A stretch of DNA of 64,000 nt from a virus, in IMG/VR virus record IMGVR_UViG_3300045988_105168, positions 1 to 64,000 of that record; one strand, 5' to 3'. The notes beneath the pieces are model-generated. The model worked only from the letters and a program-made list of their open reading frames with translations. It was not told the origin of the DNA and did not search any database. Shown one piece after another: positions 23,967-47,000 of the stretch. The stretch's first letter is position 1. Every line of letters begins with the position of its first letter. Made by a program: the position numbers and the translations under genes.

Positions 23967-23969
23967 TTT

Positions 23970-24587
23970 TTATAAATTATCAGAATATTTTAATACTTCA
24001 ACCTCTAAAAAACATTCTGGAGTATCCCCAAAACCATATATATAGTTGTAGAATTTAAAAGATTTATTTACTTCATTACGGACATACATCCCAAAATAAT
24101 CTCCTTCTTTAACATCTACTATTGCTTCACATTGTAAAGTTATCCAATTTAACTCCGACAAAATAGATTTTGCAATAGGCGTCCCTATATTAGTAGTAGA
24201 ACCATTCTTACCAATACCTAAAAACAACCAGTCATTAGCAGACCAAGCATCAATCTGACATATAACTTTCGCTCTTACTCGTACTTTTTCAATGCCAGCG
24301 CCAATTTTTATCCAGTACCCGTCTCTAGTTAAACGAGAACCATATTGTTGCCAAGTAGTCATACTACCAAAGACCGTCCATTGCCCAATAGCCCCAGGCC
24401 AATCTAGCGGCTCAGAATTATTTGATTTGTAAATCTTTATATAATCTTTACAATTATTAGTTTTAGTATTTAATCCAGTAAGCGAAGTATTTATATTATT
24501 TAAAACAGTATTAAGTGGTGTACGATTATATACCACATTTGAACTATCCCAATAATAAGGGCTGTTAAGTTTAATAGATGTAGCCAT
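23970..24587 (-). CDS. receptor-binding/fibre-tip-like paralog B4
   Basis: N-terminus MATSIKLNSPYYWDSS is shared with the three upstream paralogs. GGAGGTG SD favours ATG 24587; the track gives 24602. Confidence 0.5.
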   Translation of the reverse strand: MATSIKLNSPYYWDSSNVVYNRTPLNTVLNNINTSLTGLNTKTNNCKDYIKIYKSNNSEPLDWPGAIGQWTVFGSMTTWQQYGSRLTRDGYWIKIGAGIEKVRVRAKVICQIDAWSANDWLFLGIGKNGSTTNIGTPIAKSILSELNWITLQCEAIVDVKEGDYFGMYVRNEVNKSFKFYNYIYGFGDTPECFLEVEVLKYSDNL

Positions 24588-25242
24588 ATTTAGCACCTCC
24601 ATTAAACATATTAGTAATTAAGTTTTTTAACGACCTAATTACCCCCCCCCAATTCTTACGTCGATATACTTTTATCCAAGAACCATTTCCTATATAATCG
24701 CTATCTGTACATACAATTCTAATCGACATTACATTTGATTGATTTTGATTAACCAAATACGTATTACAATGTACATCAACGTAATTTCCGCCAGTAGTTG
24801 TAGTTCCTCCTTGACTATCAAAATACAACCAATCTTGATTAAAATATACTAAAGTACCGATTGTATAAAATAATGGCGTTCCCATACTCCATCCGTTCGT
24901 AAACGCCAAACAAGCAGAGTGTGTAGTAAGAACCCAAGAAGATGGAGATGATGACCATACATATCTATGACGCCCAGAATATCCAGAGCCTTTATCATTA
25001 AGTTGTAGATAATGTCCTCTGGATGTACCAGCCGTGCTATATTCTGCCACTACAATATCATACACATAACCATCTCTTTTTATATCGAGACCACTTACTT
25101 TTAATTCTTTTACATTACCATTTGCAACAGCCTCTCCTACCAATTCGCCAGTACTAAGAATATTGCTTAGTTGTTTCCTGTTATGTGAGATAGAAGAGCT
25201 ATCCCAAAATTTACTATCATTTAATTTTAAACTATTTGCCAT
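24571..25242 (-). CDS. receptor-binding/fibre-tip-like paralog B3 (poly-G at the 3' end)
   Basis: MANSLKLNDSKFWDSS N-terminus. The reading frame after ...RRKNWGG depends on the G9 tract. Confidence 0.5.
   Translation of the reverse strand: MANSLKLNDSKFWDSSSISHNRKQLSNILSTGELVGEAVANGNVKELKVSGLDIKRDGYVYDIVVAEYSTAGTSRGHYLQLNDKGSGYSGRHRYVWSSSPSSWVLTTHSACLAFTNGWSMGTPLFYTIGTLVYFNQDWLYFDSQGGTTTTGGNYVDVHCNTYLVNQNQSNVMSIRIVCTDSDYIGNGSWIKVYRRKNWGGVIRSLKNLITNMFNGGAKYGYIY
24642..24650 (-). repeat. homopolymer tract G9 (C9 on the plus strand)
   Basis: Counted directly: ACCCCCCCCCA. Confidence 0.9.
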
Positions 25243-25254
25243 AATATTTATGAG

Positions 25255-25719
25255 CTACTTTATTCTTATTGCTTGAATATGAGATTTTACACTAACAGTT
25301 TTATTTCTAGGCCATAAATTTAGATATACTCTAGTAGAACTATTTGAACTTTGTATACCGATAACCGTAGTATTTACCCAACCTTGGTCGTCATATCTAC
25401 TATCGGCTAACGATATTGTTATATTCTCTAATGCGGTATAAGAACTTAGATTTTGGTCTTCATAACGCCAATGTCCAATTACTAGCCATACACCAGCTGG
25501 TATTATTATCGAACAAATATCGTTACTTTGACTTTGTTTGGCGGTATTTGTAACTTCAGCACCGCTCGATATAACAGTTCCTATAGCGGCCACTGTATTG
25601 TTAACTGTTGTCACAGTATTTTTCATTGTATTTAAATAATTTGATAACAACTCTCTGTTATGTGTAATACCTTGTGTATCAATAAAAATATTATTTAATA
25701 GTTTTACACTTTTACTCAT
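25255..25719 (-). CDS. receptor-binding/fibre-tip-like paralog B2
   Basis: MSKSVKLLNNIFIDTQGITHNRELLS N-terminus; no SD. Confidence 0.5.
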   Translation of the reverse strand: MSKSVKLLNNIFIDTQGITHNRELLSNYLNTMKNTVTTVNNTVAAIGTVISSGAEVTNTAKQSQSNDICSIIIPAGVWLVIGHWRYEDQNLSSYTALENITISLADSRYDDQGWVNTTVIGIQSSNSSTRVYLNLWPRNKTVSVKSHIQAIRIK

Positions 25720-25736
25720 TTTGTTTCTATGCTAGA

Positions 25737-26306
25737 TTAAATTGTTTCTGTGTCTATAGATATAATATTCAACATCGTTCTACCACCTCTAAACATATAT
25801 GTTCGAGCTACACTAGCGCCAACTCTTAAATAAACATATTGCCCAGCGGCCAAATACACATTAATTGCAGGTATAACAGTAGAAACCATCCCTGATTGTG
25901 CACCAGAGTCTATTATAAATAGTACGGCACCATCACTTCTCATTACGTGAATTTGAAAATTTTCACCAGCCATATCGGAGTTGATAGCTCCAGATACAAT
26001 ATAATGGCCACTTTTAGATACTGCTATACCTCCGCCAGCACCATAAAAATTTGCAGTTGTTCTTCTATCCAATATTAAATTTAAAGTTGGATAATGTGTA
26101 TATGCACCATTTATAGCTACATTAGTATCAGCATAGAAACAAGCCAAACCAACGCCTTTATTAGCTAAAAATGTGTTTTGTTTATTTATACAATCAGATA
26201 ATGATGTGCTCTGATTGTTTAAAAAAGTAGACAATAATGTTCTATTATATGTAATCCCAGATGCATCCCAATAATTATTATTGGTTAGTTTAAGCGATTT
26301 AGACAA
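25737..26306 (-). CDS. receptor-binding/fibre-tip-like paralog B1 (TTG start)
   Basis: MSKSLKLTNNNYWDASGITYNRTLLS. The TTG start directly abuts the stop of a 5-codon SD-driven mini-ORF. Confidence 0.5.
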   Translation of the reverse strand: MSKSLKLTNNNYWDASGITYNRTLLSTFLNNQSTSLSDCINKQNTFLANKGVGLACFYADTNVAINGAYTHYPTLNLILDRRTTANFYGAGGGIAVSKSGHYIVSGAINSDMAGENFQIHVMRSDGAVLFIIDSGAQSGMVSTVIPAINVYLAAGQYVYLRVGASVARTYMFRGGRTMLNIISIDTETI

Positions 26307-26427: not shown

Positions 26428-26472
26428 TTAAAGCCTAGATGCCCCCCCCCCTAACGAACATTTTTTAAACAT
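26428..26472 (-). promoter_or_regulatory. SD-driven leader mini-ORF containing poly-G (MFKKCSLGGGASRL)
   Basis: AGGAGG-8 nt-ATG. The tract lies inside the mini-ORF and the stop position changes with tract length. Confidence 0.4.
26442..26451 (-). repeat. homopolymer tract G10
   Basis: Counted directly; minus-strand context TTAGGGGGGGGGGCAT. Confidence 0.9.
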
Positions 26473-26485: not shown

Positions 26486-26836
26486 TTACCAAGTATCAAC
26501 AACCGTATAATTAAGTTGTGATACATTACCTAAGTTTAAGTCGCTAATTTTCTTATCGACATTGAAGTTGGTACCGTGTTTAACTGATACCCAAGCATTA
26601 CTTGTTTTTCCGTTCTTGGTGCATAACTCAACAGAGTCTCCAACTGAAAGTTGTTCACCAGTTTTATTTAAGACACCAGAAACGATTTTTTCTGTATCGG
26701 GTGGTAAATAAACATCTACGCTCCCATTACTATTTACTGTTTTTACAACAGCAGACACGAACTTCGTAATTCCTTTTTTACTCATTCTTACATCTACGAT
26801 GTCTTCAATGACACCTTTAAATTCTTTAGTGTCCAT
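26486..26836 (-). CDS. small conserved fibre-cluster protein (paralog of 39372..39728)
   Basis: Shares VIEDIVD...LSVGDSVELCTKNG...SNAWVSVKHG with the 118-aa protein. Confidence 0.5.
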   Translation of the reverse strand: MDTKEFKGVIEDIVDVRMSKKGITKFVSAVVKTVNSNGSVDVYLPPDTEKIVSGVLNKTGEQLSVGDSVELCTKNGKTSNAWVSVKHGTNFNVDKKISDLNLGNVSQLNYTVVDTW

Positions 26837-27303: not shown

Positions 27304-27311
27304 AATTACAC

Positions 27312-27848: not shown

Positions 27849-27849
27849 A

Positions 27850-28077: not shown

Positions 28078-28079
28078 AA

Positions 28080-28280: not shown

Positions 28281-28308
28281 AATTTATTTTCTCCTTTTTT
28301 ACCATTTC

Positions 28309-28337
28309 TTGACAAATTTGCAAAAAAGTTGTATAAT
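28309..28337 (+). promoter_or_regulatory. perfect consensus promoter TTGACA-17-TATAAT, antisense to the gene block
   Basis: TTGACA 28309-28314, a 17-nt spacer, TATAAT 28332-28337. It points into the 3' end of the minus-strand nuclease gene. Confidence 0.45.
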
Positions 28338-28351
28338 CTTAAACCGACCCA

Positions 28352-29173: not shown

Positions 29174-31104
29174 AATGGACTTACCTCCTTCGACACTACG
29201 TTATGATTGTTAGGGTCGTAAGTTGGTATTGGGTATTGAGATAAATCTCTTTTGTCCCATCCATATCTAAACCAAACTTCCTCAGGTTTTTGATAAAATC
29301 TATAAGAAGGATAATCGAAATATAGATTAACTAAAGGTAATACACCAGTAATACGATTTTTTAACACTTCTACACAAGAGTCGTATTCTACAGGTTCTTT
29401 TCCTTTAATAAAATCTCCTCGTTGATTTGTTTCACCCTCTTTTTCACGGTCGGTATATCTATGTACACTAAACACCATATGTGCTAGGTTAACAATATTA
29501 CCACTACCTGCAATGTCTTCTTTAGTAACTCTTATTTCTCCTGTTTTACGAGGATGAGCTACTAAAAACACCAAGACATTGTATTTTTTTGCAAAGAATA
29601 TAAGTTTATTTACAAATTCTTTTTCTGCTTGTAAACGACCCTCTTCGCTACATTCTAGGTCAACCATCATTAAATTATCTATTAGGAATACTTTTGTTCC
29701 ACATTTACGAGCAAGTTCTTCCATCTTGTTTAATAATGCTGACGCCGTAGTGTTATAATCATCATCATACACTAATACTTTCCCACTGTACCAATTTTGC
29801 ATAATCTTACGTTGTTCTGAGTCAAACACACGAACGTGCCCATCTCTCATTGTTATATGGTCTCTACCAATCATATTAGTTTCAACCCAATTTCTTAGAA
29901 TAGGAGCGGGTAATTCGCCACTAAATACAAATACTTCATAGCCTTGTTGTAATGCTTGACATATAGCAACTTGATTTACGAATACAGATTTACCTTCACC
30001 ACTTTTACCTGTAATAATATTAAGCGTTCCAAAAGTTAGTTTATATATTTTGTCATCAAGTTCTTTAATACCTGTATACAGTCCTTCTGTATGCTCAATA
30101 TCAAAATCTTCAGCAGACGATAAATCTAATACTTTTTCAACTGGTACTTCTAAAGGTTTATTTATATATTCTAAAACTCTGTCTTTACCTATAAAGAATA
30201 AAACCTCATTAATATCTTTTACTTGCACACCATTAGGCGTTACATCTGTTGGTTGTGTTTCTACATAATAAGTTCTCCAAGTCCCTAAACGATAAATAAT
30301 ATCATTACGAGCTTTTACTCCAGGTTCGTCAGCATCAAACCATAAAATAATTTTATGAAATTGTTCTAACCAATCCCAATTATATTGAACCCATTGTGCA
30401 TTACTACAACCATTTGGTATAGAGACAACATTTGTATATCCCGCCTCAATAACTGATAAACAATCAATTTCTCCCTCAGTAATAACTAAAGGTTTTGTTG
30501 GGTCTACTCTATTCATATTAAATAGTAGTGGCGAAAAATCTGCCTCTAATTGAGACCAACATTTTGATTTGTCTACACCCTTTTGATATTTCTTTCCTAA
30601 ACGATATTTTACAGTCATTAATACATCGTTACTATCATAATAATGAAAAGCAACGTTCCCATATTTATCACTTTGTATATCGGCATAATCCATAGTTTTT
30701 ATGCTAATACCTCTGACTTGTAAATATTGTTCTACATTTGTTCTATCAGAATGTTCTCTACGTGGATATTTATAAGAGGAGGCAGTTTGCACTCCCCTTT
30801 GACTAAAATTGTAATCCATATCCACTTGTTTAAATAGTTTTTCTACAGCCTCTAAATAAGTAAGCCCTTGCTCTAAGTATAAGTCGATAATACCAAAGTT
30901 TCGACCACAACTAAAGCAATGAAAACAATTTGTTTTATCATTCCAAATGAACGACGGCGTTTTATCTCTATGCCAAGGACAAGAGCAACTTTTGTCTTTT
31001 TCATTATAAGAACCTTCTAAACCGAAGTGTCTAACTATCTCGTCGATAGCCTGACCATCATATTTGGCTTTCGCCGCATCAATCTTCTCGACTGGAATTA
31101 ACAT
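29170..31104 (-). CDS. bifunctional primase-helicase
   Basis: CHC2 zinc finger CPWHRDKTPSF...CFHCFSCG, TOPRIM ITEGEIDC/FDADEPG, Walker A GKSGEGKS, Walker B FLIDNLMM. Confidence 0.85.
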   Translation of the reverse strand: MLIPVEKIDAAKAKYDGQAIDEIVRHFGLEGSYNEKDKSCSCPWHRDKTPSFIWNDKTNCFHCFSCGRNFGIIDLYLEQGLTYLEAVEKLFKQVDMDYNFSQRGVQTASSYKYPRREHSDRTNVEQYLQVRGISIKTMDYADIQSDKYGNVAFHYYDSNDVLMTVKYRLGKKYQKGVDKSKCWSQLEADFSPLLFNMNRVDPTKPLVITEGEIDCLSVIEAGYTNVVSIPNGCSNAQWVQYNWDWLEQFHKIILWFDADEPGVKARNDIIYRLGTWRTYYVETQPTDVTPNGVQVKDINEVLFFIGKDRVLEYINKPLEVPVEKVLDLSSAEDFDIEHTEGLYTGIKELDDKIYKLTFGTLNIITGKSGEGKSVFVNQVAICQALQQGYEVFVFSGELPAPILRNWVETNMIGRDHITMRDGHVRVFDSEQRKIMQNWYSGKVLVYDDDYNTTASALLNKMEELARKCGTKVFLIDNLMMVDLECSEEGRLQAEKEFVNKLIFFAKKYNVLVFLVAHPRKTGEIRVTKEDIAGSGNIVNLAHMVFSVHRYTDREKEGETNQRGDFIKGKEPVEYDSCVEVLKNRITGVLPLVNLYFDYPSYRFYQKPEEVWFRYGWDKRDLSQYPIPTYDPNNHNVVSKEVSPL

Positions 31105-34896: not shown

Positions 34897-35040
34897 TTAT
34901 TCAACCTCCTCTACGTTTTCAATTATTGTGTCTTCTGTACAAAGTACATCAAACCCATCCTCGTTGAAAGTTGTTTGGATTTCTAAATCCTCAGGCATTT
35001 CAACTACTTCTTCAATAATTTCTTCTTTTTTCTTTGCCAT
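34897..35040 (-). CDS. small acidic protein (47 aa, below the track cutoff)
   Basis: AGGAGGAATGAAAA SD region plus ATG. MAKKKEEIIEEVVEMPEDLEIQ... Confidence 0.35.
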   Translation of the reverse strand: MAKKKEEIIEEVVEMPEDLEIQTTFNEDGFDVLCTEDTIIENVEEVE

Positions 35041-35053
35041 TTTTCATTCCTCC

Positions 35054-35398
35054 TTATTTTTCATTATTTGAGTTTACAGGTACATTTACCGTTAATAAGT
35101 CTTTAATCTTCATTAAGACTTTACCTGCATAAACTAAGTTCGCAGCTTTAATTAATAATGTTGCTCCTGTTAATGTAGTAACCATTTCACCATTAATTTC
35201 AGCCACTTCCATTGGGTAAATATAAGTTGACGCAAAAGCTAAAGCTAACCCAATTAAAAAGAAGGCAGCTTTGCTAATGCCTCCAACTAATTTTTCTTTG
35301 TTGTATTCTTGTTTAAAATCGGCTAACTTTTTACCCATAATAATGTTAGCCACCATTAAACATATTAAAGATAATACAACTGCAATATACTCTGGCAT
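35054..35398 (-). CDS. holin
   Basis: 114 aa with about 3 hydrophobic helices, directly upstream of the endolysin. Confidence 0.65.
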   Translation of the reverse strand: MPEYIAVVLSLICLMVANIIMGKKLADFKQEYNKEKLVGGISKAAFFLIGLALAFASTYIYPMEVAEINGEMVTTLTGATLLIKAANLVYAGKVLMKIKDLLTVNVPVNSNNEK

Positions 35399-35410
35399 TT
35401 AAATTCCTCC

Positions 35411-36490
35411 TTAAATAACCTTAAATTTTTCCTTTTTTACTTCTACGAACGAACCACCATTTTGGCTTGTGTACATTTTGTATCTAGTAAATCCACCACC
35501 ATTTTGAGATACGTAGATATATTTGTCAGATACAACCGTAACTGAATTGCTTCCATTTACCGCAGTTGTTCCACTACCGCTCCAATGTTTATTACCAGCC
35601 CAATCATAACAATATGCAAATATACTTGTCGTAGCAACATCCCCAGGTACAAAACCTAAAGCTTCAAATGTTCCAAAGGTATAGGTAACCGCTGTACTAT
35701 CGGTGTCTATACATTGTATTTCAGTACCATTTTTATACAAACGAATTCTATATCCGCCTATTGCTGTAGAGCCAGCTGATGCCGCCGTCCAAGTTGCTTT
35801 AATATTTGCCTTTGGTATTGGTTCACTTTGGTCATAGGTTAATACTGGTGCACCTGGGTTACCTGGAGCGTAGAAGGCCGTCGTAAAACTTGTAACGGCT
35901 GTATACGCCCTACCAGCACTATTAGCCGCGTTTCCTCGTAAATAATATGTTCTATTCGGTGTTAACCCAGTAATAGTACCTGCTTTACTACTAATACCCG
36001 CTACTACAGTACCAAAGTTTGTTAATGATGCATCGATATAACCATCGGATGGAGCTTCACCATTATTGTTAGACACACTAAACGAAGCGTAAACCGACGT
36101 ATCTTTAACACTACTATAACTAATTGCACTCAGTGTTGGTTTAAAAATATACGCAGACATTGTAAAATTACCACCGTGGTTATCTGTACGATTATAAAAT
36201 ACATATCCTGTAAAATATACAGTTATGGTTTTTGAACTTGCTCCGTTACCTATCCATACACTACCACTTGTACTACCAACTTTTGCTGGGAATGCATAAG
36301 TATTCCAAGCAACCGTACCTGGATTGTATACTGTCGTACCGTTAATCTTAACATTTACATTATAAATAGTATAGTAATTGCTACTACTATTACCAGTAGA
36401 ATATAATGCCCATTTCGCATACCCACCATCTTGCCAAACATCTAGTTGTAAATATCTCCCATCATAAGTATTACTATAAAAAGTAGCCAT
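35411..36490 (-). CDS. tail fibre / FN3-like repeat protein
   Basis: Ser/Thr/Gly/Asn-rich beta-type sequence with FN3-like GLTPNRTYYLRG; lies in the fibre cluster. Confidence 0.45.
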   Translation of the reverse strand: MATFYSNTYDGRYLQLDVWQDGGYAKWALYSTGNSSSNYYTIYNVNVKINGTTVYNPGTVAWNTYAFPAKVGSTSGSVWIGNGASSKTITVYFTGYVFYNRTDNHGGNFTMSAYIFKPTLSAISYSSVKDTSVYASFSVSNNNGEAPSDGYIDASLTNFGTVVAGISSKAGTITGLTPNRTYYLRGNAANSAGRAYTAVTSFTTAFYAPGNPGAPVLTYDQSEPIPKANIKATWTAASAGSTAIGGYRIRLYKNGTEIQCIDTDSTAVTYTFGTFEALGFVPGDVATTSIFAYCYDWAGNKHWSGSGTTAVNGSNSVTVVSDKYIYVSQNGGGFTRYKMYTSQNGGSFVEVKKEKFKVI

Positions 36491-36501
36491 CTACTCACCT
36501 C

Positions 36502-36900
36502 CTAACTTGCAGTATTTATCCATATAATTGTCTTTCCGCTTTGTGCTGATGGTTGTGTTGAACTAACTTTGATAATTGTATTCCCATCGCTCATTACACC
36601 ATAAGCATTTACGGCTTCTTTTACTCTTGCTGGCGTCATTACTTTATTTGTGATTGCACCAGCAGTTGCTTCGGCAGTTGTTGCAGCTGCTAATGATAAT
36701 GTTCCATCACTAAGATTTAAACCGTTACCAGTAGTAACTTTGATATGACCAAAAGCCGATGTTGTTGCTACACCAAAATCAGTTGTTGTTGACGCGTGAT
36801 TTTTTGTAGCCTTATTTGTATAAAGGTCTGTGAAATTTTCATTTAAAATATTTCTAAACACAGCACCTGATATACCATTATTTAAGGTTTGTTGTGCCAT
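36502..36900 (-). CDS. tail fibre protein (N-terminal adaptor-like)
   Basis: MAQQTLNNGISGAVFRNILNENFTDLY is a typical fibre N-terminus. Confidence 0.45.
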   Translation of the reverse strand: MAQQTLNNGISGAVFRNILNENFTDLYTNKATKNHASTTTDFGVATTSAFGHIKVTTGNGLNLSDGTLSLAAATTAEATAGAITNKVMTPARVKEAVNAYGVMSDGNTIIKVSSTQPSAQSGKTIIWINTAS

Positions 36901-36926
36901 ATAATCTCCTCCTTTTTAATTTAACT

Positions 36927-37445
36927 TTATGCGGTTCTTTTCCAAACAAATACATCAACTGTTGCTATATTATGCGAATGTGCGCCTCCGCCACCCGTAT
37001 TTTGATTGGTGGCTGTAGCCGCTCTTGTAGATACGTTATCATAAGGCGCACCAGTACTTGACCTTGACCAACCTAATTCAATACATCCAGTACTCCCATA
37101 AGTGGTTGAAACAACTATTGTATCCCCTGAACTACCGCTGTCATTATGCCTTAAACCGTGATGCTTGTGTGAATTTTGGGTATGGGTATGACTTGGCATT
37201 TGAGATACTGTTAATGTGTGTCCTTGAGTTCCCCATCCAACATAGTCTGTTTTACCAATACTAGATTGAGCCGCATATAAATATCCACCATATAATTGCT
37301 CCCAAGTACCACCAAAGTAGGTTGATGGATTTGTTTTATTAATTGACAAATAAATTGAACCAACTGGATATAAATCTTTTATATCAAGTGGTGTTATTGA
37401 TACATTTTTATTATTGTTATATATTCTTCCATATGGTTTTGCCAT
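36927..37445 (-). CDS. phage tail-collar-domain fibre protein A4
   Basis: GSIYLS...YFGGTW, QMPSHTH, GGGGAHSHN...VFVWKRTA. Confidence 0.65.
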   Translation of the reverse strand: MAKPYGRIYNNNKNVSITPLDIKDLYPVGSIYLSINKTNPSTYFGGTWEQLYGGYLYAAQSSIGKTDYVGWGTQGHTLTVSQMPSHTHTQNSHKHHGLRHNDSGSSGDTIVVSTTYGSTGCIELGWSRSSTGAPYDNVSTRAATATNQNTGGGGAHSHNIATVDVFVWKRTA

Positions 37446-37466
37446 AAATTTCGGTTTATCGTGATA

Positions 37467-38016
37467 TTAAGCCGTACGTCTCCATACATAATTACTTGTG
37501 TTATAGACATCTATTTTAAAAGCCTTTAAACCAATACTATCTAATGTTCGCCCTGTTGCACTCCAAGATTGTAAATACACTGTAACTGGAGTAGATGTTA
37601 CAATTACATCAACGACCTGTCCACTATATTTGTTACCATCACTACAATGAACTGATTGTCTAGTATAAGCACCTCGTGAAGAAAGTTGTAATGTAAAACC
37701 TGTGCCACTACCATAACCAGAAGCAGAACCAATAAGTAACCATCTACCTTGTGGTAATGTAATAGACGCATTACTTATCCAAGTCGCTCTTGCTTCATCA
37801 GTTAACACCAACCCATTTACTTCCAATGTCTCATCTATTTGAGACCATTCTCCTCCAAATAAAGTTCTAGGGTTGACATTATTAGTACTGATATATATAG
37901 AGCCTGTAGGCTGTATACTATCACTTAATAACCTGCCCCCCCCCCTCACAATAGATACTCTTGTCAGAGATTAGGACAGGCAAATCTTTTACTTTTACTT
38001 TTCCATAATTCGCCAT
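37467..38016 (-). CDS. collar-related fibre paralog A3, interrupted by a frameshift at poly-G (in-frame at G9)
   Basis: A 31-codon N-terminal ORF (ATG 38016, MANYGKVKVKDLPVLISDKSIYCEGGG...) and the body ORF 37467..37949 are 1 nt out of frame across the G10 tract. Confidence 0.6.
37936..37945 (-). repeat. homopolymer tract G10
   Basis: Counted directly; minus-strand context TGTGAGGGGGGGGGGCAGG. Confidence 0.9.
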
Positions 38017-38046
38017 AAAAATTTTATAGTTAATTAATCTTTACTT

Positions 38047-38625
38047 TTAAGCTGTACGTTTCCAAATGTAAACTACTAAGTACGGCATTAAATTGTTATG
38101 ATTACCACCACCACCAGTACTATTTGTAGTTCCATCGTGTTGGTGGGCTGATTTATTATTACCCGCATATGTCAACCACTCATTTAATCTATAATTTGTA
38201 GACCACCCCATACCACTATTGCCTATGAAGTCATTATTACTAGCGGCGCCTGCGCCAGCAGAATAATAAGCTATTTCGTGTCTGTGATGGCCACCAACAT
38301 TTGTAAGAAAATAATGTGTATGACTGGGCATTTCTGAAGTTGTTATTTTATGTGTAACCTCACCACCCATATTACCAGCATAAGCTACAAAGCTCCCTGC
38401 GTTAACAGTACCACACCAGTTGTCATTATTTGCCACAATAGTTCCTTCACCAACCAAAGTACGACCCTGAGCTATTTTTATCCAAGTACCACCAAAGTAA
38501 GTTGATGGATTTGTAGAATTAACACTAATATATACAGACCCGATAGGCCATACATCATAAGTATCAATCCCCATTATAGAAACGTTCTTTCCTTTTTGAT
38601 AAAGTCGACCATAAGGTTTTGCCAT
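38047..38625 (-). CDS. phage tail-collar-domain fibre protein A2
   Basis: GSVYIS...YFGGTW, EMPSHTH, GGGGNHNNLMPYLVVYIWKRTA. Confidence 0.65.
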   Translation of the reverse strand: MAKPYGRLYQKGKNVSIMGIDTYDVWPIGSVYISVNSTNPSTYFGGTWIKIAQGRTLVGEGTIVANNDNWCGTVNAGSFVAYAGNMGGEVTHKITTSEMPSHTHYFLTNVGGHHRHEIAYYSAGAGAASNNDFIGNSGMGWSTNYRLNEWLTYAGNNKSAHQHDGTTNSTGGGGNHNNLMPYLVVYIWKRTA

Positions 38626-38654
38626 AATACTCGACGCTTCGGTTTATTATTTAT

Positions 38655-39217
38655 TTAAGCTGTTCTTTGCCATATATAAACCGCCATATAAGGCATTACG
38701 TTATTATGCCATCCTCCGCCACCTGTGTTTTGCATTGCAATACTGTTACTCCATCCTTTTGTATCCATACTGTAAAGGTAATCCCAGTTATTATAGCTTA
38801 ATGTAGCTAACGCATCTGAATTGTTGTTATAAGGATTATAACCATTACTATTCTTATTTAATGCTGTAACTTTATGGCAATGAGCTGGCATCTCACTTGT
38901 TGTTAGGTAATGATTATATTGGCCGCCCATTTCACCAGCCCAGAAACTATAATTATTATTATTAAGTGTTCCACACCAATTAGTGTTATTATCTGAAGGG
39001 TCTCCAACACCAACTAAGCATCTACCTTGACAAATCTGTGTCCAAGTGCCCCCAAATAAATCTTTAGGGTTTGTGGCGCTCATTGTTAAATAAATACTAC
39101 CGACAGGATAAACTAAATCAAACAGTTTATCGAGCGTCTTGCCCCCCCCTCATACAGTATTGAACTTGCATTTATAAGGACGGGACTATTTTTTACATAT
39201 GTTTTTCCTTTATTCAT
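38655..39217 (-). CDS. tail-collar-domain fibre protein A1, interrupted by a frameshift at poly-G (in-frame at G9)
   Basis: The N-terminal ORF from ATG 39217 (MNKGKTYVKNSPVLINASSILYEGG...) and the body frame (KTLDKLFDLVYPVGSIYLTMSATNP..., EMPAHCH, GGGGWHNNVMPYMAVYIWQRTA) differ by 1 nt across the G8 tract. Confidence 0.6.
39142..39149 (-). repeat. homopolymer tract G8
   Basis: Counted directly; minus-strand context TATGAGGGGGGGGCAAG. Confidence 0.9.
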
Positions 39218-39244
39218 AAGTTAAATCGTAAAGATTGTCATACC

Positions 39245-39276
39245 AAAAAGAGGTATACTAACTATAATATACCTCC
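39245..39276 (-). terminator. intrinsic terminator between the poly-G leader and fibre cassette A1
   Basis: Minus strand GAGGTATA-TTATAGTTAG-TATACCTC followed by TTTTT. The 5' arm overlaps an AGGAGG. Confidence 0.55.
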
Positions 39277-39307
39277 TTTCTCTCGAAAGTTAGAAGGCAC
39301 GACAATC

Positions 39308-39349
39308 TTAGCGATGTGTCGCCCCCCCCCTAATCATATAATTTCTCAT
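39308..39349 (-). promoter_or_regulatory. SD-driven leader mini-ORF containing poly-G (MRNYMIRGGATHR)
   Basis: AAAGGAG-9 nt-ATG with a G9 tract inside. At G8 or G10 the frame reads on into the terminator hairpin. Confidence 0.4.
39322..39330 (-). repeat. homopolymer tract G9
   Basis: Counted directly; minus-strand context ATTAGGGGGGGGGCGAC. Confidence 0.9.
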
Positions 39350-39371
39350 TAAAAATCACTCCTTTTATTCA

Positions 39372-39728
39372 TTAATATTCACCTGTTTTAACGAAGATTA
39401 GAGCGTTATCTTCTAAATACTTTACACGGTCTGCGATTGAGGTTCCTTTACCGTGTTTTAATGCAACCCAAGAATTTGATAAACGTCCATTTTTAGTACA
39501 TAATTCTACTGAGTCACCAACTGACAAACTTTCAGTACTTTTATTTAAGACATTATTTACTCTTCTTGCATTATCGGGTGGAATTGTAACGTTAACTGTA
39601 CCATCAGAATTAATCTGTGTTACAACCGCTGCAACAAAGGAAGTTATACCATAACTCGCTAAACGAGCATCTACAATGTCCTCAATTACTTTTTTAAATT
39701 CCTCTAATTGTCTTGCATCAAAATTCAC
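39372..39728 (-). CDS. small conserved fibre-cluster protein (paralog of 26486..26836)
   Basis: VIEDIVDARL...LSVGDSVELCTKNGRLSNSWVALKHG; GTG start. Confidence 0.5.
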   Translation of the reverse strand: MNFDARQLEEFKKVIEDIVDARLASYGITSFVAAVVTQINSDGTVNVTIPPDNARRVNNVLNKSTESLSVGDSVELCTKNGRLSNSWVALKHGKGTSIADRVKYLEDNALIFVKTGEY

Positions 39729-39729
39729 G

Positions 39730-40995
39730 TTACATCACCCCTTCTCCATAAGTATTAAAGTTTGCAATATTTGAACAGCTGATTGACATTTGGCATTGGT
39801 CTCCAATAGTATAAGAGATTGATTGAATTAAAAAACGTTCTCTTTGAATGTCATAGTATTGGTCTGTTATTGTAATTAAATTGTTTACAAATAATAATGG
39901 ATTGAATGATACATTGACACTCATAGTTGTTTTTAAAATACCAAATTTTCTTAATTCATAGTCCGCACGTTGTTGTGCTAAATCATCACTATAAATACTG
40001 CTGTCATTGATATATTCAATACGACGTCCAATTCTTTGCACGCACAATGGCGATGCTGGATTATTATTTTTAGCCATAGCCGAAAAGATTTCATTATTTA
40101 TATTATCCCCAACTACGTGTACTTCGTTTACTGCGTTTTCAAAATCATAATTGGCTGTCGCATTATAATAATCTCTTTCTGTATCTTCATAATCCCATAA
40201 TGAAGCCTTTTGAACGTCCAATGTTGTTTCGTTAATATTAATAAAACACAAGTTCCCTTGTGAGTTATAATACACTTCTGCATTTAAAATTGTACCGATT
40301 TCTAAAAGCATTTCTCCCAAAGTGCTTCCTGCGTCCTTTGACAAAGTATAAGGCATCTTTAATCCTGTGAACGCACGGTCATAAATGATTGGTTTTAAAT
40401 CTATTGGGGCACCAGAACCATTATCTAAAGTTAAAATACCAATAATTGCTTGCTCAATATCTGAGTTAACAGGTATTTCATATGTAGCCTCTAAAGTACC
40501 AGCTTTCCCCTCAAGCACCGCGAACTTATCAACAAGCGTCAAAGACACTTGCTTGTCTGAGTCTTGGTGACTTGCCGAAGGGTTCCCTAAAACATAAATT
40601 CCACGTGGGAACCAATATACTTGACCGTCGAATTCTAGCCCGACGTCAAATCTAAATCTGTTATGCACCCAAATTGTATTAATGCTTGGCGTGTATTTGC
40701 CATCTATATTAATTAAATTTATATTTACACTTTTTCTTTGTCCACTCTGATAATTCTCTGTAAAGTTACCAGAATTAATAATAATATCCTCTTGAGGAAT
40801 TTCATAGTTTATTGTTTCGTCTGGGTTAAGAACAAATAATCTAAAGCGTGGTTTATATACTGGACGCTTTAAAACATCTGTTAAATAACTCATACTAACA
40901 CTAGAACTATCAACTAAACGAAGGACTTCGCCATATTGACTCCATAAAGTTGAAGTAGATGTATCGGCTAAAGCCCTTGTATCGTAAGTCGCCAT
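39730..40995 (-). CDS. baseplate/tail-tip structural protein (421 aa)
   Basis: Position between the tape measure and the fibre cluster; no motif recognised. Confidence 0.4.
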   Translation of the reverse strand: MATYDTRALADTSTSTLWSQYGEVLRLVDSSSVSMSYLTDVLKRPVYKPRFRLFVLNPDETINYEIPQEDIIINSGNFTENYQSGQRKSVNINLINIDGKYTPSINTIWVHNRFRFDVGLEFDGQVYWFPRGIYVLGNPSASHQDSDKQVSLTLVDKFAVLEGKAGTLEATYEIPVNSDIEQAIIGILTLDNGSGAPIDLKPIIYDRAFTGLKMPYTLSKDAGSTLGEMLLEIGTILNAEVYYNSQGNLCFININETTLDVQKASLWDYEDTERDYYNATANYDFENAVNEVHVVGDNINNEIFSAMAKNNNPASPLCVQRIGRRIEYINDSSIYSDDLAQQRADYELRKFGILKTTMSVNVSFNPLLFVNNLITITDQYYDIQRERFLIQSISYTIGDQCQMSISCSNIANFNTYGEGVM

Positions 40996-41843
40996 TATCC
41001 TCCAATAATAGTAATGTTGTCGATGTCTTCAACTTCTACCCAACTAAATGTAATAGTATTAATTTGCTCTCTAGTCACATCGTCTGTTTGTGATGATGTG
41101 CCTGTAACCATTACTAACATCGCATTACCTTTTCTATCTTTTAATAACTTCATATTACCATCCGCACAGAATTCATTCCACTCGTCTAACATTGTATTAG
41201 GTTCAATATATTCAACTAAACTGCTAGTAGTCTTTTGAACGTTACCTAATAAACAAGTTAATGAACCTGTTGAATAGTTTAGTTTTCCAGAGGATACTTT
41301 AGGAAATCGTGTAAGATTGTTATAAGTAGTGTTGTTAAGAGTTTGCGTCCTAGCAGCACTTGAAATGTTTAAATTAAACTTCCATATGTCACCTGTTGTA
41401 TAATATAAGCCTTTTTCGCTTGTACTTGGAATAATATCTATTAAAGACCAATCCCACCAACAAGTTGAAACATCATTTGAAACTACGGCTTCAGAAATTG
41501 CCGACTCGTCTTCTTTAAAAATATAATATTTATATGTTTTGTTATTTGTAACACCATAGTCGGTCATTGATAAACCACCATCACCAAGTCTAGCAACATA
41601 TACTAATTGGTTAGTATCTTTGACCTCTCTATAAATAGAGAAATTATACCCTAAAGCAACATCGGCAACTCCTCCAGAAGTTGTTGTAGCATCGTCAAAT
41701 GTTACAAGAAATCTCGAATAGTTATTTAATACTGGTACGTACTTCGCAGCATTAAAAATATTCGCGTTCGTAGATGAACTTTCTTCTAAATGAAAGAAGT
41801 CTAATTTTACGTTATTATGCACTGTTAACCCTGTTAATAACAT
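40995..41843 (-). CDS. baseplate/tail structural protein (282 aa)
   Basis: Position; translationally coupled (TAATG) to the next gene. Confidence 0.4.
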   Translation of the reverse strand: MLLTGLTVHNNVKLDFFHLEESSSTNANIFNAAKYVPVLNNYSRFLVTFDDATTTSGGVADVALGYNFSIYREVKDTNQLVYVARLGDGGLSMTDYGVTNNKTYKYYIFKEDESAISEAVVSNDVSTCWWDWSLIDIIPSTSEKGLYYTTGDIWKFNLNISSAARTQTLNNTTYNNLTRFPKVSSGKLNYSTGSLTCLLGNVQKTTSSLVEYIEPNTMLDEWNEFCADGNMKLLKDRKGNAMLVMVTGTSSQTDDVTREQINTITFSWVEVEDIDNITIIGG

Positions 41844-41858
41844 ATTTTATCCTCCTTT

Positions 41859-44024
41859 TTATGTTGTAGGGAATATCTCTTCTATTTTAATTCCCGTATT
41901 TGTTATTTGAACTTTCCACCAGTGATTACATACACGTTCAAGTGAAGTTCCACCTTCTACCCAAGTATATGTGTCTGTCCAAGTCGCTGTATCATCCCAA
42001 ATATAGTCATTATTAATTTGGGCAATGTTTGCTGATGATAATACAAACACTTGAGATGTGTTGGTATAAAATGGAAGTTCTAAACTAATATCTGGATTTT
42101 GCACAAATATTAATTTATTTTTATCTATTTTGATTGTAAACTCGCCCTCACTATTTGCATCATCGGTTTCTGTTGTGATTAAATTTACAACTTCTTGATA
42201 TACACCGTTTTGGTCGTAGAAAAAGTTCCCATCTGGACTAAATTGCAGTGTAATATTAAAATCATCTGGTAGTACACAAAGTCCGTCTGGTGTTGACCAA
42301 GTTGCTGTATAACCGTGTGTATATAATGAGTTTACTGTATTGTATGGTGTATTATATAAGTATTGAAATCCTGTATTATTATAAATATTTGATAATACTC
42401 GATATGTGTCACCTGGCATTGGTGTATATGTAAAAGGATAGTCTGCAAGCATTGTTCCTACACCAGTTGTTGCGTTATATGAATTAATAACACCCGTGTA
42501 TCTTGTGCCGATTGTACGATATGGCTCAACTGTAGCTATATCTGCACCTTTAGCAATTTGAAAATTAAAAGTGGAATTAGTAAAAACAGTACCAATAGCT
42601 TGACTATTAATAAAAACTTGTAGATATAATTCAGTATCTTCTGTTAAAGTAAAATTTTGATTATATGACAAATTATATCTAGTGTTGTCACTAGCAGCTG
42701 TTATATAGGTTGTTGTTTTGCTAGAATCCTTTATATAAACCGCAAAACCAGCATTGGATGTATCTGGAAATGAAAAGCCACCACTTAATAATTGACTATA
42801 AGAATATGTGCCAGCAGCATATGTCCCCAATACAAAGCCCAAAATTTCTCCACTACTTGTTGTTGTCCCGTTAAGAGACATAGAATTTAAATTAAGCGTT
42901 CTGTTAAGACCTAAAGCTAAAGTCAATGTTTGTGTTGGAAGTAATATTAAATTTTTACCTTCAACATTAGCAGTAATTTGTACTTGGTCACCATTACCTA
43001 AGGTTTGATTGTCTTCAAATACAGCCTGAGTTAATGAATTAGCACCATCTTGAATTGTACCACTTGTCGCTCCTGAACTATTAGATACAGCCTCATTTTC
43101 TACTGGTGTTACCCACGAAACTTTAACTGCATTGTTCTTATCATCAAATGACGCTAATGGTTGTTGTAAATATTCTACGATGTCGTAAGATACAGTAAAT
43201 TCATACATATCTGTTGTAGATATAATACCCATATCATTTTCTACAGTCATTTGTATTAAATATTTATTTCCTGTTCTAAAACTGTCGTATGTATATGATA
43301 AATTAGCAGAATAAACTTTATCTGACGAAGCCACTAAAGAAATTGTTCCATCGTCGTTTCTTGTATATAAATCAAATTGATGATATACAATAGCAACATT
43401 ATCTGATTGTGTATATGTTCCTTGGAATGTATGATATTTTAATGTTAATGAAGATGGCACGTTACTAATAGCAACCGCAGGAGTTCGCCTTGCATAAACG
43501 ATATAGTCTGGCACGGTTTCAATAAAATCAGAGTAAATCTTATATTGTGTTCCTACAGCAGGTGCTGATGAAAATGCGCTACTAACAACGGCTACACCTG
43601 TATCACTATTATATGATGAAATTGTTTTTGTCTGACTATTGATTGTAATTGCCATACCAGCCTTGATGTTAATATTTGGTTGTAAGTATATAGTTGTTGT
43701 TGTACTTGTCGCCTGTACTAAACCATAAGTAATTAACATATCGGCAGTTGGTTGATATAATCTAACACGCCATTTATAGTTTGTTCCATTACTTAAAGCA
43801 ACAGTTGATGCATTTACTGGAATTTCTAATGTATCACCATTGTATGCATAATTAGTTAATGTAGTTTTTGAGCCAGTATAAATTTCGTTGTTGTCAAAAT
43901 CTACTATTAATAATTGATACGCAGATACATACGAATTAGTTTGAATTTCCATTGTAAACGTATTATCTAAAAGACCATCAATAGACACACCTGATGGTTG
44001 TACATTACGTGGTTGATAAATCAT
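41859..44024 (-). CDS. large distal-tail/baseplate protein
   Basis: First gene after the tape measure. AAGGAGG SD favours ATG 44024; the track gives 44030. Confidence 0.45.
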   Translation of the reverse strand: MIYQPRNVQPSGVSIDGLLDNTFTMEIQTNSYVSAYQLLIVDFDNNEIYTGSKTTLTNYAYNGDTLEIPVNASTVALSNGTNYKWRVRLYQPTADMLITYGLVQATSTTTTIYLQPNINIKAGMAITINSQTKTISSYNSDTGVAVVSSAFSSAPAVGTQYKIYSDFIETVPDYIVYARRTPAVAISNVPSSLTLKYHTFQGTYTQSDNVAIVYHQFDLYTRNDDGTISLVASSDKVYSANLSYTYDSFRTGNKYLIQMTVENDMGIISTTDMYEFTVSYDIVEYLQQPLASFDDKNNAVKVSWVTPVENEAVSNSSGATSGTIQDGANSLTQAVFEDNQTLGNGDQVQITANVEGKNLILLPTQTLTLALGLNRTLNLNSMSLNGTTTSSGEILGFVLGTYAAGTYSYSQLLSGGFSFPDTSNAGFAVYIKDSSKTTTYITAASDNTRYNLSYNQNFTLTEDTELYLQVFINSQAIGTVFTNSTFNFQIAKGADIATVEPYRTIGTRYTGVINSYNATTGVGTMLADYPFTYTPMPGDTYRVLSNIYNNTGFQYLYNTPYNTVNSLYTHGYTATWSTPDGLCVLPDDFNITLQFSPDGNFFYDQNGVYQEVVNLITTETDDANSEGEFTIKIDKNKLIFVQNPDISLELPFYTNTSQVFVLSSANIAQINNDYIWDDTATWTDTYTWVEGGTSLERVCNHWWKVQITNTGIKIEEIFPTT

Positions 44025-44086
44025 ACACATCCTCCTTTCTTTTATGTATGTTTAGCACCAAAGGGCACCGACATTTATGTCGGCAC

Positions 44087-47000
44087 CTATTGATGTTTTG
44101 TTATATTTACTAAAGATTTTAATTCTGTTACAAATTGTCTAGCATTAGTTACATTTGGTAATTCAATATTACCGAAGTTGTAATTAGTTACAGCGCCACC
44201 ACCAGTAGGTAAATTACTTGTTGTTTGTGGTCGTATTAAACTAGACAACATATTTCTCATTTGGTCGTTATTTAATACAAACTCTGGTTTTGATTTACTT
44301 CCGTGAAGCATTGCTAAACCAGTGTAGTCAACCATACCTCCGTTAGCATATCCTGGAATTGTAAGTGTTTGACCTGGATAAATACGATTTGGATTGCTTC
44401 CGATAACTGACTTATTAGCCTCATAAATCTTTTTCCAAGAAATACCATACTTGCTACCAATACCACTAAGCGTATCACCACTTCTAACAGTATATGTTTT
44501 ATTATTAGAAGTTTGTGTTTTAGGTGCGCTACTAGACGTAGTTGTTGTTGGTGTGTTATATCCACTCAACTTATCAGCAGGTGTATTTTCTAGGTCAGCA
44601 ATCTCCTTCATTGTTGCTAAATAGCCTTGTTTGTATTTTTCTAATACATCAAGACGTTGTTGTAAGATTTGAGCTTCAGCATCAGCACCCAACTGATTTG
44701 CTAAAGTTATTCTTGCCTGTTGTGTTTCATAATCATCAGCAACACTCTCCCAAGACTCTTTATATTTTTCCCAAGCATCGATTTGCTCTTCAATCGCACT
44801 AATTGCTTGTTCTTTTTGTTCTTCGATTGCTCTAATTTCTTCTTCGTTGTTAAATTCATCAAGTGCTTCTTGAGCCTCTCTGATTGCCTCTTGGTCTGCT
44901 TCCCAAACCCAACCAATACCTTCGCGCCATACACGCTTAGTCTTTTCAGCCTTAGCGTTCGCAAGTGCCTCTTGAAGTCTAGCTAATTCTAATTCTCTTT
45001 CAGTTTCTTCGTTAGCCTTTTCTTTATCTGCAATTAATTGGTCATAATACTCTTCTTGTTCATCTCTAAGTTGTTGTAACTTCTCAATCTCATCTTCGAT
45101 AATACCAACGGCAGCCTCTTCAGCAGTATCATAATCATCTTTTTGTTTGTCAGCTTTGTCTTGAAGACCCTTTTTAATTTTATCAGCAAGTTCGTTCCAA
45201 GCGTCAGTACCTTGTTTATAAGCTTTAATTAATTCTTTTAGTTTCTTGATATATTCATCAAGACTAATAGAACCACGCTTATAATCGTCTTCAACCTTAG
45301 TTAAACGTTGTTTTTGAAGTTCTTCGTTTATCTTACGCCAAGCTTCTGTACCTTTATTAACACGTCCTAATAAATTATCAAGACCACTAATATATTGTTC
45401 AATAGTAATTTCATTATATTTGAATTGGTCTTTAAGATTTTCAAGCTCAATCTCCCACCATTCTTTTTCTGACTTAGAAGAAGATTTACTTGAACTTGAT
45501 TTTTTTGCACTACTAGATAAAGTTCTATTCCATAATTTATCTATAGCATTGAATTGATTTTGTACATTTTGGACAATAGCATCCATTAATGCTTTATTAT
45601 CTTCGGTCACACCTTCTACCGCTTTGTATTCCGCAGCCTTTTTAGCTAATTCTTCATATGCAGTACCAGTATTACCTAATTGTGTTTCTAATAAACCATA
45701 TTTTTCTTTTAATTTTTCTATTGCCGCAGCATCATTATTGGCAGCTACAATAGCTAATTCATCATAAGCAATTTGTAATATCTTTGCTTTAGTTTCTTGT
45801 AGTTGTGCTTGAGCTAAGGCATCTAAAGCACTAATATTATCTTTAATTTGACCATTCTCATCAAACAAATATTGTAAGTACTTAGGTTCTAAATCCAACA
45901 AAGACATTAAAGTGTCCATAGTTATATAACCATATTCGTTATATTCCTCAAGCGCTCCCTCTAATGTACTATATGCATCACCTAAAGTATCAAGTTGTTC
46001 TTTTAATGTTTCTATCTCTGATGATAGTGTAATTATTTCATTTGATGCGTCATTTGTAACTTTTACTACACCAGGTTCGATAAGACCTAATTCTTCTAAT
46101 CTAGCAATAAATTCCTCAACAGGAACTCCAGCCTCATAAGCAGCAGATGCAATTTTTTGCATAGCTTGATAAGTATCTAAACCAAATTCGTCTAAATCCC
46201 ATTCATCAGCATTATAAAGTTCCGCCAATTCTTTTATGGCATCAGCATTTAAATCTAAACCATTTAAATGAGATATGGCGCCTTCTATACCGTTTTCGGT
46301 GTTTTTTATTTCTTCATCTATTTTAGCGTTCTGTAATTGTTTTTCCCAACCACCAAGTAAATTAGTAAAGAAATTTTTCATTATAGGGTCATCATTAATT
46401 CCATTTACAAATGTTTGGAATGACGCTATATCTTGTTCTGCCTTTTGCATACCTTCAGTATCGCCAGATGCGACAGCTTTTGCATATGCTTTTTCAGCCT
46501 CTAAAAACTTACCATATTCTTTACTATATTTTTCTTCTGTTAATGCTCTTGCTTCAGCGGCTTGATTTAATACTTCTTGATGTTTTTTAATATATTCATC
46601 AACTTCGCCAAGCTCTTTTTCAATCGCTGTTTTAGCAGCTGTTATTTCTCCTTCTGTTAAATCAAATTGAGACGTCCAATTTTCATCATCTAATAATAAT
46701 AAAGAATTTTCTAGTGACTCTTTTACCTCTTCAGCAGTACCTTCAAACTTAAAAGCGTAATCTTCGTATTTTGTAAAAATATCGCCTAACCAATTTGTAA
46801 ATCCACCAGTATTAGTTCCTGCCCAATCAGCACCTATTGCCTCCTGAACAACCTTAGCCTTATCCCAACTTGCTAATTCTAATTGTATCCAATCTCCAGC
46901 ATCTTTGTTATCACCATAATAATCTCTTTTTAATGCTGATTTAGAACTTGCGATAGCGGCACTGTTATCATCTAAATACTTTTGTGCATTCTTTTTCTCT

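Follow-up and report, generated by a model that had tools for sequence, protein, structure and literature searches.

Results

Two fiber head genes are split at poly-G runs

The stretch of viral DNA analyzed here, referred to as the window (64,000 nucleotides [nt]; positions 1 to 64,000 of the IMG/VR virus record IMGVR_UViG_3300045988_105168), carries on its minus strand a tail-fiber cassette in which an anchor gene is followed by four small genes, A1 to A4, encoding fiber heads. Two of these head genes, A1 and A3, are interrupted near their 5' ends by a run of guanines whose length places the gene body out of frame. The head genes, their runs, and the anchor are as follows (aa, amino acids; -, minus strand).

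39372..39728 (-): anchor protein, 118 aa, homologous to the N-terminal ~95 residues of single-chain fibers in relatives
38655..39217 (-): A1, poly-G-interrupted head gene with 22 N-terminal codons, the G run, and a Gp10_C body
39142..39149 (-): poly-G run of A1, G8 in the window and G7, G8, or G9 at the orthologous site of relatives
38047..38625 (-): A2, head gene lacking a G run (192 aa), intact whatever the state, Gp10_C
37467..38016 (-): A3, poly-G-interrupted head gene with 23 N-terminal codons, the G run, and a body with a different beta-sandwich head
37936..37945 (-): poly-G run of A3, G10 here; G8 in the related contig L083 and G9 in L044, L045, and L085
36927..37445 (-): A4, head gene lacking a G run (172 aa), Gp10_C

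Read on the minus strand, A1 runs from ATG 39217 through ...ATA CTG TAT GAG into a G8 run followed by CAAGACG (CAAGACGCTC), and A3 runs from ATG 38016 through ...ATC TAT TGT GAG into a G10 run followed by CAGGTT (CAGGTTATT). Both genes appear in the list of open reading frames (ORFs) as two pieces, a 34-aa ORF (39113-39217) and a 142-aa body (38655-39083) for A1 and a 31-aa ORF (37921-38016) and a 160-aa body (37467-37949) for A3, which confirmed the splits at G8 and G10 described in an initial annotation of this DNA. When the two genes were rebuilt and translated at each run length from G6 to G12, A1 yielded 34 aa at G8 and 186, 187, and 188 aa at G6, G9, and G12, respectively, while A3 yielded 31 aa at G10 and 181, 182, and 183 aa at G6, G9, and G12; the out-of-frame lengths met a stop within 5-10 codons. 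With products of 34 and 31 aa, both genes are therefore OFF as sequenced, as had been claimed, and the same state was found again in two further assemblies (L088 and L089). At G9, the junction reads GAG GGG GGG GGC in both genes and gives the anticipated E-G-G-G-(R/K) sequence (SILYEGGGKTLDKLF in A1, SIYCEGGGRLLSDS in A3).

The restored products belong to a recognizable family of tail proteins. Full-length matches to Gp10_C (PF21939; gathering threshold, 27 bits) were obtained for A1 (89.9 bits), A2 (85.5 bits), and A4 (53.5 bits), while A3 reached 28.7 bits over profile positions 3-40 only, corresponding to the first ~37 residues past the run. A3 is thus a partial member, which shares the N-terminal strand and the C-terminal ...YVWRRTA strand with the other heads and has a beta-rich insert of another type between them. 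With a profile made from 47 family members, matches were obtained to the C-terminal domain of T4 gp10 (2fkk; E = 2e-15) and to several tail fibers, and PHROGs assigned these head proteins to tail and tail-fiber proteins. The label "tail-collar" used in the initial annotation proved loose: A1 does match phrog_910 ("tail collar fiber protein") more weakly (7e-8), but the Pfam search gave Gp10_C and returned no Collar (PF07484) match at E <= 0.01. AlphaFold monomer models of restored A1 and A3 were poor (predicted local distance difference test scores, 61.6 and 64.2), and a fold search with the A3 model returned only weak matches to TNF/C1q-like jelly rolls (TM, 0.3-0.45), which at most hints that the modeled A3 head may resemble this fold. 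The N-termini of restored A1 and A3 had also been said to align with the intact paralogs A2 and A4. The alignment holds over the initial ~22 residues and resumes at YPVGSIY, but the ~16-residue EGGG segment in between is missing in A2 and A4.

The anchor gene provides a clue to the layout of the fiber. Relatives without G runs carry the anchor as part of a longer protein, joined either to a Gp10_C head (284 aa in L007, 242 aa in L005, and 433 aa in L010) or to a fiber with an S74 chaperone domain (L015 and L022). Since the same ~95 residues are part of a single chain in these relatives, the fiber of the window lineage appears to have been split into a stand-alone anchor and several free heads, which, judging from these relatives, probably dock on the 118-aa anchor via their N-terminal ~25-45 residues.

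Natural ON alleles and length polymorphism

DNA of relatives was gathered from IMG/VR, from metagenome contigs, and from contigs coding for matches to the restored heads or to the window anchors. One such contig (L044; 96.8% nucleotide identity to window 37305-38118) has A3 at G9, that is, ON, and encodes a 182-aa protein (P0001) that is 98% identical to restored A3. Another (L045), whose flanks are 95-97% identical, carries G9 in the leader described below, in A1 (180 aa), and in the gene at the A3 position (169 aa), which bears a different head. Both genes are ON in L085, A1 is ON at G9 in L084, L087, and L002, and both genes are OFF in L086. A role for poly-G as a recombination junction at which heads are swapped was considered and rejected, as the homology between the window and L045 runs ~50-75 nt past the runs, to YPVGSIY.

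Between genomes that are otherwise identical, differences appear first in run length. Two contigs from one metagenome (L002 and L003) differed by 14 substitutions in 17.3 kb and had internal indels only in three poly-G runs, with a fourth run differing by a G/C substitution; across the second cassette of the same two contigs (L029 and L030), 2 substitutions were found in 12.3 kb, and the internal indels were all at three runs. No indels were found at A8/T8 runs across five such runs of L002. Near-identical contigs from separate samples (L002, L003, L074, L075, and L076) showed at most 30 substitutions in 4.45 kb and indels only in or beside the runs. Still closer to the window is L083, which aligned over 8357 bp with zero mismatches and two gap columns, its A3 run being G8 instead of G10. 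The G8 of A1 and the G10 of A3 recurred in L088 and L089, which are assemblies of other runs in that project, making the OFF/OFF state of this strain reproducible, and a contig with 100% identity to the window over 8351 bp (L081) shared all three second-cassette run lengths, with which the lengths in L082 also agreed.

Gated heads are conserved and differ in state among relatives

Cassettes in relatives follow one order, in which the anchor gene and a leader mini-ORF with a G run precede 2 to 9 small head genes. These heads are either ungated (A2/A4-like, MAKPYGR...) or gated, with the N-terminus M..(Y/K)G...K......L....I.[Y/C]-E-G-G-G-[K/R]..L... followed by YP(V/I)GS(I/V)Y. The gated N-terminus ...[Y/C]EGG(G)... 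was present in 44 of the 90 protein clusters matching restored A1 or A3, joined to diverse heads, and the N-terminal mini-ORFs were the most conserved part of these genes, being nearly invariant at the protein level. A total of 76 gated genes were scored, 62 in 22 related stretches and 14 on contigs found via the anchor protein. Run lengths among the 62 genes were G7 (4 genes), G8 (20), G9 (34), and G10 (4). Wherever a body was uncut by a contig end, in all 76 genes, it was an intact ORF of 150-194 aa that a change of one or two G would restore. The length required for the ON state depended on the paralog (G6/9/12 in most, G7/10 in the MDYGTIKHK type, and G8/11 in the MNKGNTYNKNQQ type), so the G9 shared by A1 and A3 is not a rule; the proposal that one tract length turns the genes ON was borne out for A1 and A3 but not for the family, in which these two paralog types need other lengths.

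Different genomes had different heads switched ON: the first in L002, the fourth in L003, the third in L024, and the fifth and sixth in L025. A gated paralog with the N-terminus MKNIGDIKNKNI needs G9 and was found at G7 or G8, and hence OFF, in 10 of 10 genomes (L002, L003, L024, L025, L066, L073-L076, and L078); its body was intact wherever the contig covered it, the L024 copy being cut by the contig end. Protein variants with GG or GGG, both in frame, were also seen (P0032, P0034, and P0036), and interruptions of the runs were isolated only (e.g., G7CG in the leader of L003; P0030). Conserved mini-ORFs, full-length forms, and tract-length variants were thus all found, contrary to the plain decay that the initial annotation had held out as the other outcome.

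In contigs in a +1 state, gene-calling programs place the start of the A1-type gene at an internal ATG of a different frame (P0064, P0069, and P0071; MQVQYCMRGGGKTL...). This form, a predicted ORF only, illustrates how such loci become mis-annotated.

Poly-G runs exceed expectation and are confined to fiber cassettes

The plus strand of the window contains C runs of length 1-5, none of 6-7, and six of 8-10, while its G runs reach 5 at most. The pattern GGGGGGGG had 13 overlapping matches in the window against 0.22 expected from shuffles, in DNA of 33% G+C. All six runs of G8-G10 have G on the coding strand and are confined to 39330-37936 and 26451-24642, which lie within the two fiber cassettes. 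Among glycine codons, GGG is the least used (7.1% across the 31 ORFs of at least 200 aa), and the remaining four Gly-Gly-Gly tripeptides in long ORFs are spelled GGT GGT GGN, indicating that the run is kept at the DNA level and is not demanded by the protein. The sequence-level hallmarks of a contingency locus are therefore present, namely, at least 7 G in a receptor-binding-type ORF, a length change that toggles between full and truncated products, run frequency and placement above composition, and length polymorphism between otherwise identical assemblies.

A second cassette, leader mini-ORFs, and promoter-like DNA

Further runs lie in a second cassette, headed by a paralogous anchor, and in the leaders of both cassettes.

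39308..39349 (-): leader mini-ORF encoding MRNYMIRGGATHR and a stop; strong Shine-Dalgarno sequence; G9 run (39322-39330)
39245..39279 (-): conserved terminator-like element separating the leader from A1, made up of an 11-bp hairpin and a U run after it
26486..26836 (-): second anchor, 116 aa, paralog of 39372-39728, heading the second cassette
26428..26472 (-): second leader mini-ORF; strong Shine-Dalgarno sequence; G10 run (26442-26451), which varies between L029 and L030
26366..26395 (-): promoter-like TTGAGG - 18 nt - TATAGT from a consensus scan, with a G9 run (26383-26391) in the spacer
23970..26306 (-): four paralogous small fiber genes, B1-B4, with the N-termini MSKSLKL, MSKSVKL, MANSLKL, and MATSIKL
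24642-24650 (-): G9 run near the 3' end of B3 (24571-25242)

No Pfam match was found for B1 and B3, the two genes of this cassette that were searched. The three second-cassette runs (26442-26451, G10; 26383-26391, G9; 24642-24650, G9) have counterparts that differ between L029 and L030. At G9, B3 ends in a tail of 25 residues whose codons extend across the ribosome-binding site of B4 and its start codon (ATG 24587), and at G8 or G10, B3 stops immediately (...NWGG and ...NWGGGN, respectively), so this run may tune the expression of B4 rather than switch B3 off.

The first leader mini-ORF was kept in every relative with a cassette, at a run length of 7-10. Beside the terminator-like hairpin, which a consensus terminator scan left unlisted, a second hairpin (39292-39330) pairs the leader poly-G with a downstream CCUUCU. 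Fold z-scores were -5.0 for the first leader region and -5.3 for the second, and changes between the window and L002 preserve pairs in the first leader hairpins. The promoter-like hexamers are also present in L029, and L030, with G8, would have a 17-nt spacer, the optimal length. Shine-Dalgarno sequences are missing at A1-A4, B2, and B3 (starts at 39217, 38625, 38016, 37445, 25719, and 25242), which begin only 10-30 nt past the preceding stop, while almost all remaining genes of the window carry GGAGG-type sites; the cassettes of L002, L024, L025, and L063 showed the same pattern.

Collectively, the leader, hairpin, promoter-like, and Shine-Dalgarno features suggest that a cassette may be regulated as a unit. 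A translational relay, in which head genes lacking a ribosome-binding site would depend for translation on coupling to the preceding gene and an OFF gene would silence the genes downstream, was rejected, as L003, L024, and L025 have ON genes downstream of OFF genes, whose ON state would serve no purpose under such a relay. The leader frame as a master switch was likewise unsupported, given that genomes with the first head ON had the leader at G8 seven times, at G9 six times, and at G7 or G10 twice. We regard as speculative, and on balance doubtful, a two-level switch in which the run lengths in the leader and promoter-like DNA would set transcription or translation of the whole cassette on top of the per-gene gating. 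If true, this would place a heritable stochastic attenuator or promoter switch over per-gene switches in a virus.

One contig from another phage combines elements of both cassettes. In a Logan contig of ERR11570070 (L063:1273-1887), a head that is 90% identical to the A1 head lies behind a B-type adaptor (MYKAIKLKNNNFLAST...HKRGGGW) with a G10 run, and this phage has sheath-initiator and Baseplate_J genes, as expected of the contractile-tail type. This arrangement indicates that heads have been exchanged across adaptor types and phage types and that poly-G gating is recurrent.

Genomic context, phage lineage, and host

Genes for proteins of 723, 282, and 421 aa lie upstream of the first cassette, the 421-aa protein matching DUF5048 and a PHROG annotated as "tail protein." Downstream lie a 114-aa putative holin (a label given without a family search) and a lysin whose orthologs in related contigs have CHAP and LysM domains. 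These neighbors fit a distal-tail module. The phage encodes its own polymerase III (Pol III) alpha-type polymerase (20742-23894), and on the plus strand at 64-9205, the window carries 16 tRNA genes along with a phage-encoded transfer-messenger RNA (4189-4555; tag, ANNEIYLGYFI). This block holds a tRNA-Ile with the anticodon UAU and a tRNA-Gly(UCC) that can wobble-read GGG.

Across 8351 bp, no difference separated the window from the ENA contig ERZ27229688 k119_272451 (114,765 bp; 100% identity), the identity of the window to contigs of three PRJNA217052 runs was 99.98-100% (compared at 22486-30836 and 35370-43728), and the exact 118-aa anchor protein was indexed in 76 blocks of the contig collection. 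These near-identical contigs and the recurrence of the anchor point to a common gut phage with a genome of ~115 kb. Its closest phage matches, at 25-27% identity, were human-fecal "Bacteriophage sp." records and Thomasclavelia phages; similarity to Thomasclavelia and Geobacillus phages was distant only, and no close isolate was found. A megablast search of window 35000-45000 against GenBank phages gave zero matches, as did an exact-pattern search of IMG/VR for the A3 N-terminus. The phage is an uncultured gut phage with a genome of more than 100 kb, probably infecting Bacillota. Lysin relatives (up to 83% identity; L046-L062) on contigs binned to metagenome-assembled genomes of Candidatus Coprovivens, uncultured Bacilli, "Mollicutes," and Mycoplasma tentatively hint at an uncultured Bacilli lineage with a reduced genome as the host, with the reservation that these contigs may be phage DNA binned by composition.

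Discussion

Our data indicate that the poly-G-gated head genes are real, conserved, and naturally variable. We consider it likely that slipped-strand mispairing at the run during DNA replication switches optional heads ON and OFF in a heritable and probably reversible manner. Each gated gene consists of a conserved ~22-codon N-terminus, a G run encoding Glu-Gly-Gly-Gly, a short linker, and a variable head that resembles the C-terminal part of T4 gp10. Length variation of the run is observed, and slipped-strand mispairing during phage DNA replication is its most likely source. One frame in three gives the full protein of 150-190 aa, and the other two stop early. A phage population would accordingly be a mixture of genomes that add optional heads (A1 and A3 in the window; up to six in relatives) to the always-intact A2 and A4, with each head docking by its N-terminal segment on the separate 118-aa anchor, as the fused fibers of relatives suggest. 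By analogy with Campylobacter phages, the benefit could be host-range bet-hedging against variable host surface receptors.

Several points weigh against this interpretation. All run lengths are assembly consensus calls, and since G homopolymers are error-prone, any single call could be off by one; the lengths were, moreover, compared assembly against assembly and not inside one population. A hand tally that excluded genes ON by construction as look-up queries counted 13 of 59 genes ON (22%), below the 33% expected of free-running switches (one-sided binomial p = 0.037 against 1/3 for the first 45 genes, with genomes that are not independent, for which reason we do not lean on the ON fraction). 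The MKNIGDIK... paralog was OFF in all 10 genomes in which it was seen, and the low ON fraction could reflect dispensable genes and not genes in use. As A1-A4 have no Shine-Dalgarno sequence, the protein yield of even the ON alleles is in question, and with poor monomer models, the docking of heads on the anchor rests on inference.

Three other explanations were considered. It is improbable, in our judgment, that the OFF calls are homopolymer sequencing or assembly errors on a true genome with G9 in both genes, which would render the variation meaningless. Although runs of 8-10 G are a weak spot of sequencing chemistry, the evidence comes entirely from consensus contigs, and the coverage of L024 is just 1.3x, the G8 of A1 and the G10 of A3 were repeated in independent assemblies (L088 and L089), as were the second-cassette lengths (L081 and L082). 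Near-identical genomes differed at poly-G and never at A8/T8 runs, the spread from G7 to G10 extended across different assemblers and projects, and the length calls have no bearing on the fact that the runs exist, on where they lie, or on their unusual codons. A similarly low probability is assigned to programmed recoding, whereby a +1/-1 ribosomal shift or a stutter of RNA polymerase would make full-length heads at a set ratio from OFF genomes and the DNA length would be secondary. Recoding sites retain a constant slippery sequence and a constant frame relation, whereas the same ortholog occurs here at G7, G8, G9, and G10, in all three frame relations with in-frame ON alleles included; the 70 nt past seven runs showed no conserved or consistently stable structure (z, +1.0 to -2.7); and the OFF frames terminate within 5-10 codons. 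What speaks for recoding is that a G run would let tRNA-Gly re-pair perfectly in any frame, that its likeness to a Shine-Dalgarno sequence could pause ribosomes, that the phage encodes a tRNA-Gly(UCC), and that homopolymers of at least 9 are known sites of transcriptional slippage, mostly with A/T. With run lengths unfixed and stimulatory structure unconserved, the ribosomal and transcriptional slippage routes offered in the initial annotation are neither needed nor supported, and recoding may add leaky expression as an extra layer.

The notion that A1 and A3 are decaying pseudogenes, derived from duplicated fiber genes and broken at a mutation-prone run, appears very improbable. The OFF genes not cut by contig ends keep uninterrupted bodies of 150-194 codons in an AT-rich genome, their N-terminal segments are nearly invariant in protein sequence, and no stops or frameshifts were seen in orthologs outside the run. 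Both genes are OFF in the window strain in four assemblies, the gated genes are mostly OFF in most genomes with one paralog never ON, and A2 and A4 alone could suffice, all of which would fit decay; yet ON alleles are common, and the runs have been held at G7-G10 and not eroded by substitutions, their interruptions being isolated.

To our knowledge, experimental proof of phase-variable receptor-binding proteins has been confined to phages of Campylobacter, and the present findings suggest that a common but uncultured lineage of gut phages evolved this strategy independently. One phage stock could probably try several host receptors, with a larger repertoire provided by up to six optional heads per cassette and by the second cassette. 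Gene callers will split or truncate gated genes, and consensus genomes hide the mixed population, and host-range prediction from a single assembly will be wrong. Bet-hedging by gut phages is directly testable in existing metagenomes. The split between anchor and heads, together with heads 90% identical in phages of the non-contractile and contractile types, marks a natural module boundary for host-range engineering.

The gated heads share features with several known systems. Bacterial contingency loci are poly-G/C runs in surface-structure genes of Campylobacter, Haemophilus, and Neisseria. As in these loci, the homopolymer lies near the 5' end of the ORF, which is ON in one frame of three, several independent loci give combinatorial states, and the runs far exceed the expectation from base composition. 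Unlike them, the loci described here are virus-borne and act on virion receptor-binding proteins and not on the cell surface, and their replication may use a phage Pol III alpha-type polymerase. Phages also switch tropism by other means, such as the invertible tail-fiber segments of Mu (Gin) and P1 (Cin) and the diversity-generating retroelement of Bordetella phage BPP-1. One genome with alternative receptor-binding ends and a mixed population would be common to all of these, but the mechanism proposed here needs no invertase, inverted repeats, or reverse transcriptase (for which the window was not searched), and the alternatives are whole genes, each with an ON/OFF switch of its own, and not alternative 3' ends or mutagenized sets of codons. 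The heads themselves resemble the C-terminal domain of T4 gp10 (PF21939; 2fkk), with full-domain matches in A1, A2, and A4, a P(S/A)H(T/C)H motif, and a C-terminal ...VY(I/M)W(K/Q)RTA strand. They are free-standing proteins of 170-190 aa, unlike the domain in T4, which is the end of a 602-aa baseplate protein, and of this domain, A3 retains just the initial ~37 residues and the final strand, which flank an unrelated beta-sandwich.

Frameshifts at simple repeats have also been described in T2 and T4, where, in a preprint (Gomez, Barrick, Waters, bioRxiv 10.1101/2025.10.21.683753), poly-A contingency loci are reported to undergo reversible frameshifts in replication as a form of bet-hedging, with A runs in genes such as agt and rIIA that act against host defence systems. 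The frameshifts proposed here would be of the same kind, made by G runs. According to the same preprint, simple repeats are under-represented (0.77x) in the tail-fiber genes of BASEL coliphages (10.1101/2025.10.21.683753), which is the opposite of their concentration in the fiber cassettes of this phage. The closest parallel is Fletchervirus of Campylobacter, in which, as summarized in later papers, receptor-binding genes carry poly-G of 7-11 G with phase-variable expression (10.1101/2025.10.21.683753, PMC10579305, PMC8766974), and subpopulations infect hosts whose own receptor is phase-varied (Sorensen et al., Cell Rep 2021;35:109214, as cited in 10.1101/2025.10.21.683753, PMC10579305, PMC8766974). 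Runs of ~7-11 G inside receptor-binding ORFs are shared with Fletchervirus, whose populations, as these citing papers describe them, are phenotypically mixed. Unlike Fletchervirus, to the extent that a comparison through those papers allows, the present phage belongs to another lineage, an uncultured gut phage known here from sequence alone; its runs lie in a conserved N-terminal module common to as many as six small, interchangeable heads arranged in an array, the anchor is a protein apart from the heads, and further runs occur in leader and promoter-like DNA. The feature described here thus extends a mechanism first shown in Campylobacter phages and is not a new kind of system, and what it adds to that mechanism is an array of up to six individually switched heads, a split anchor/head layout, and runs in leader and promoter-like DNA.

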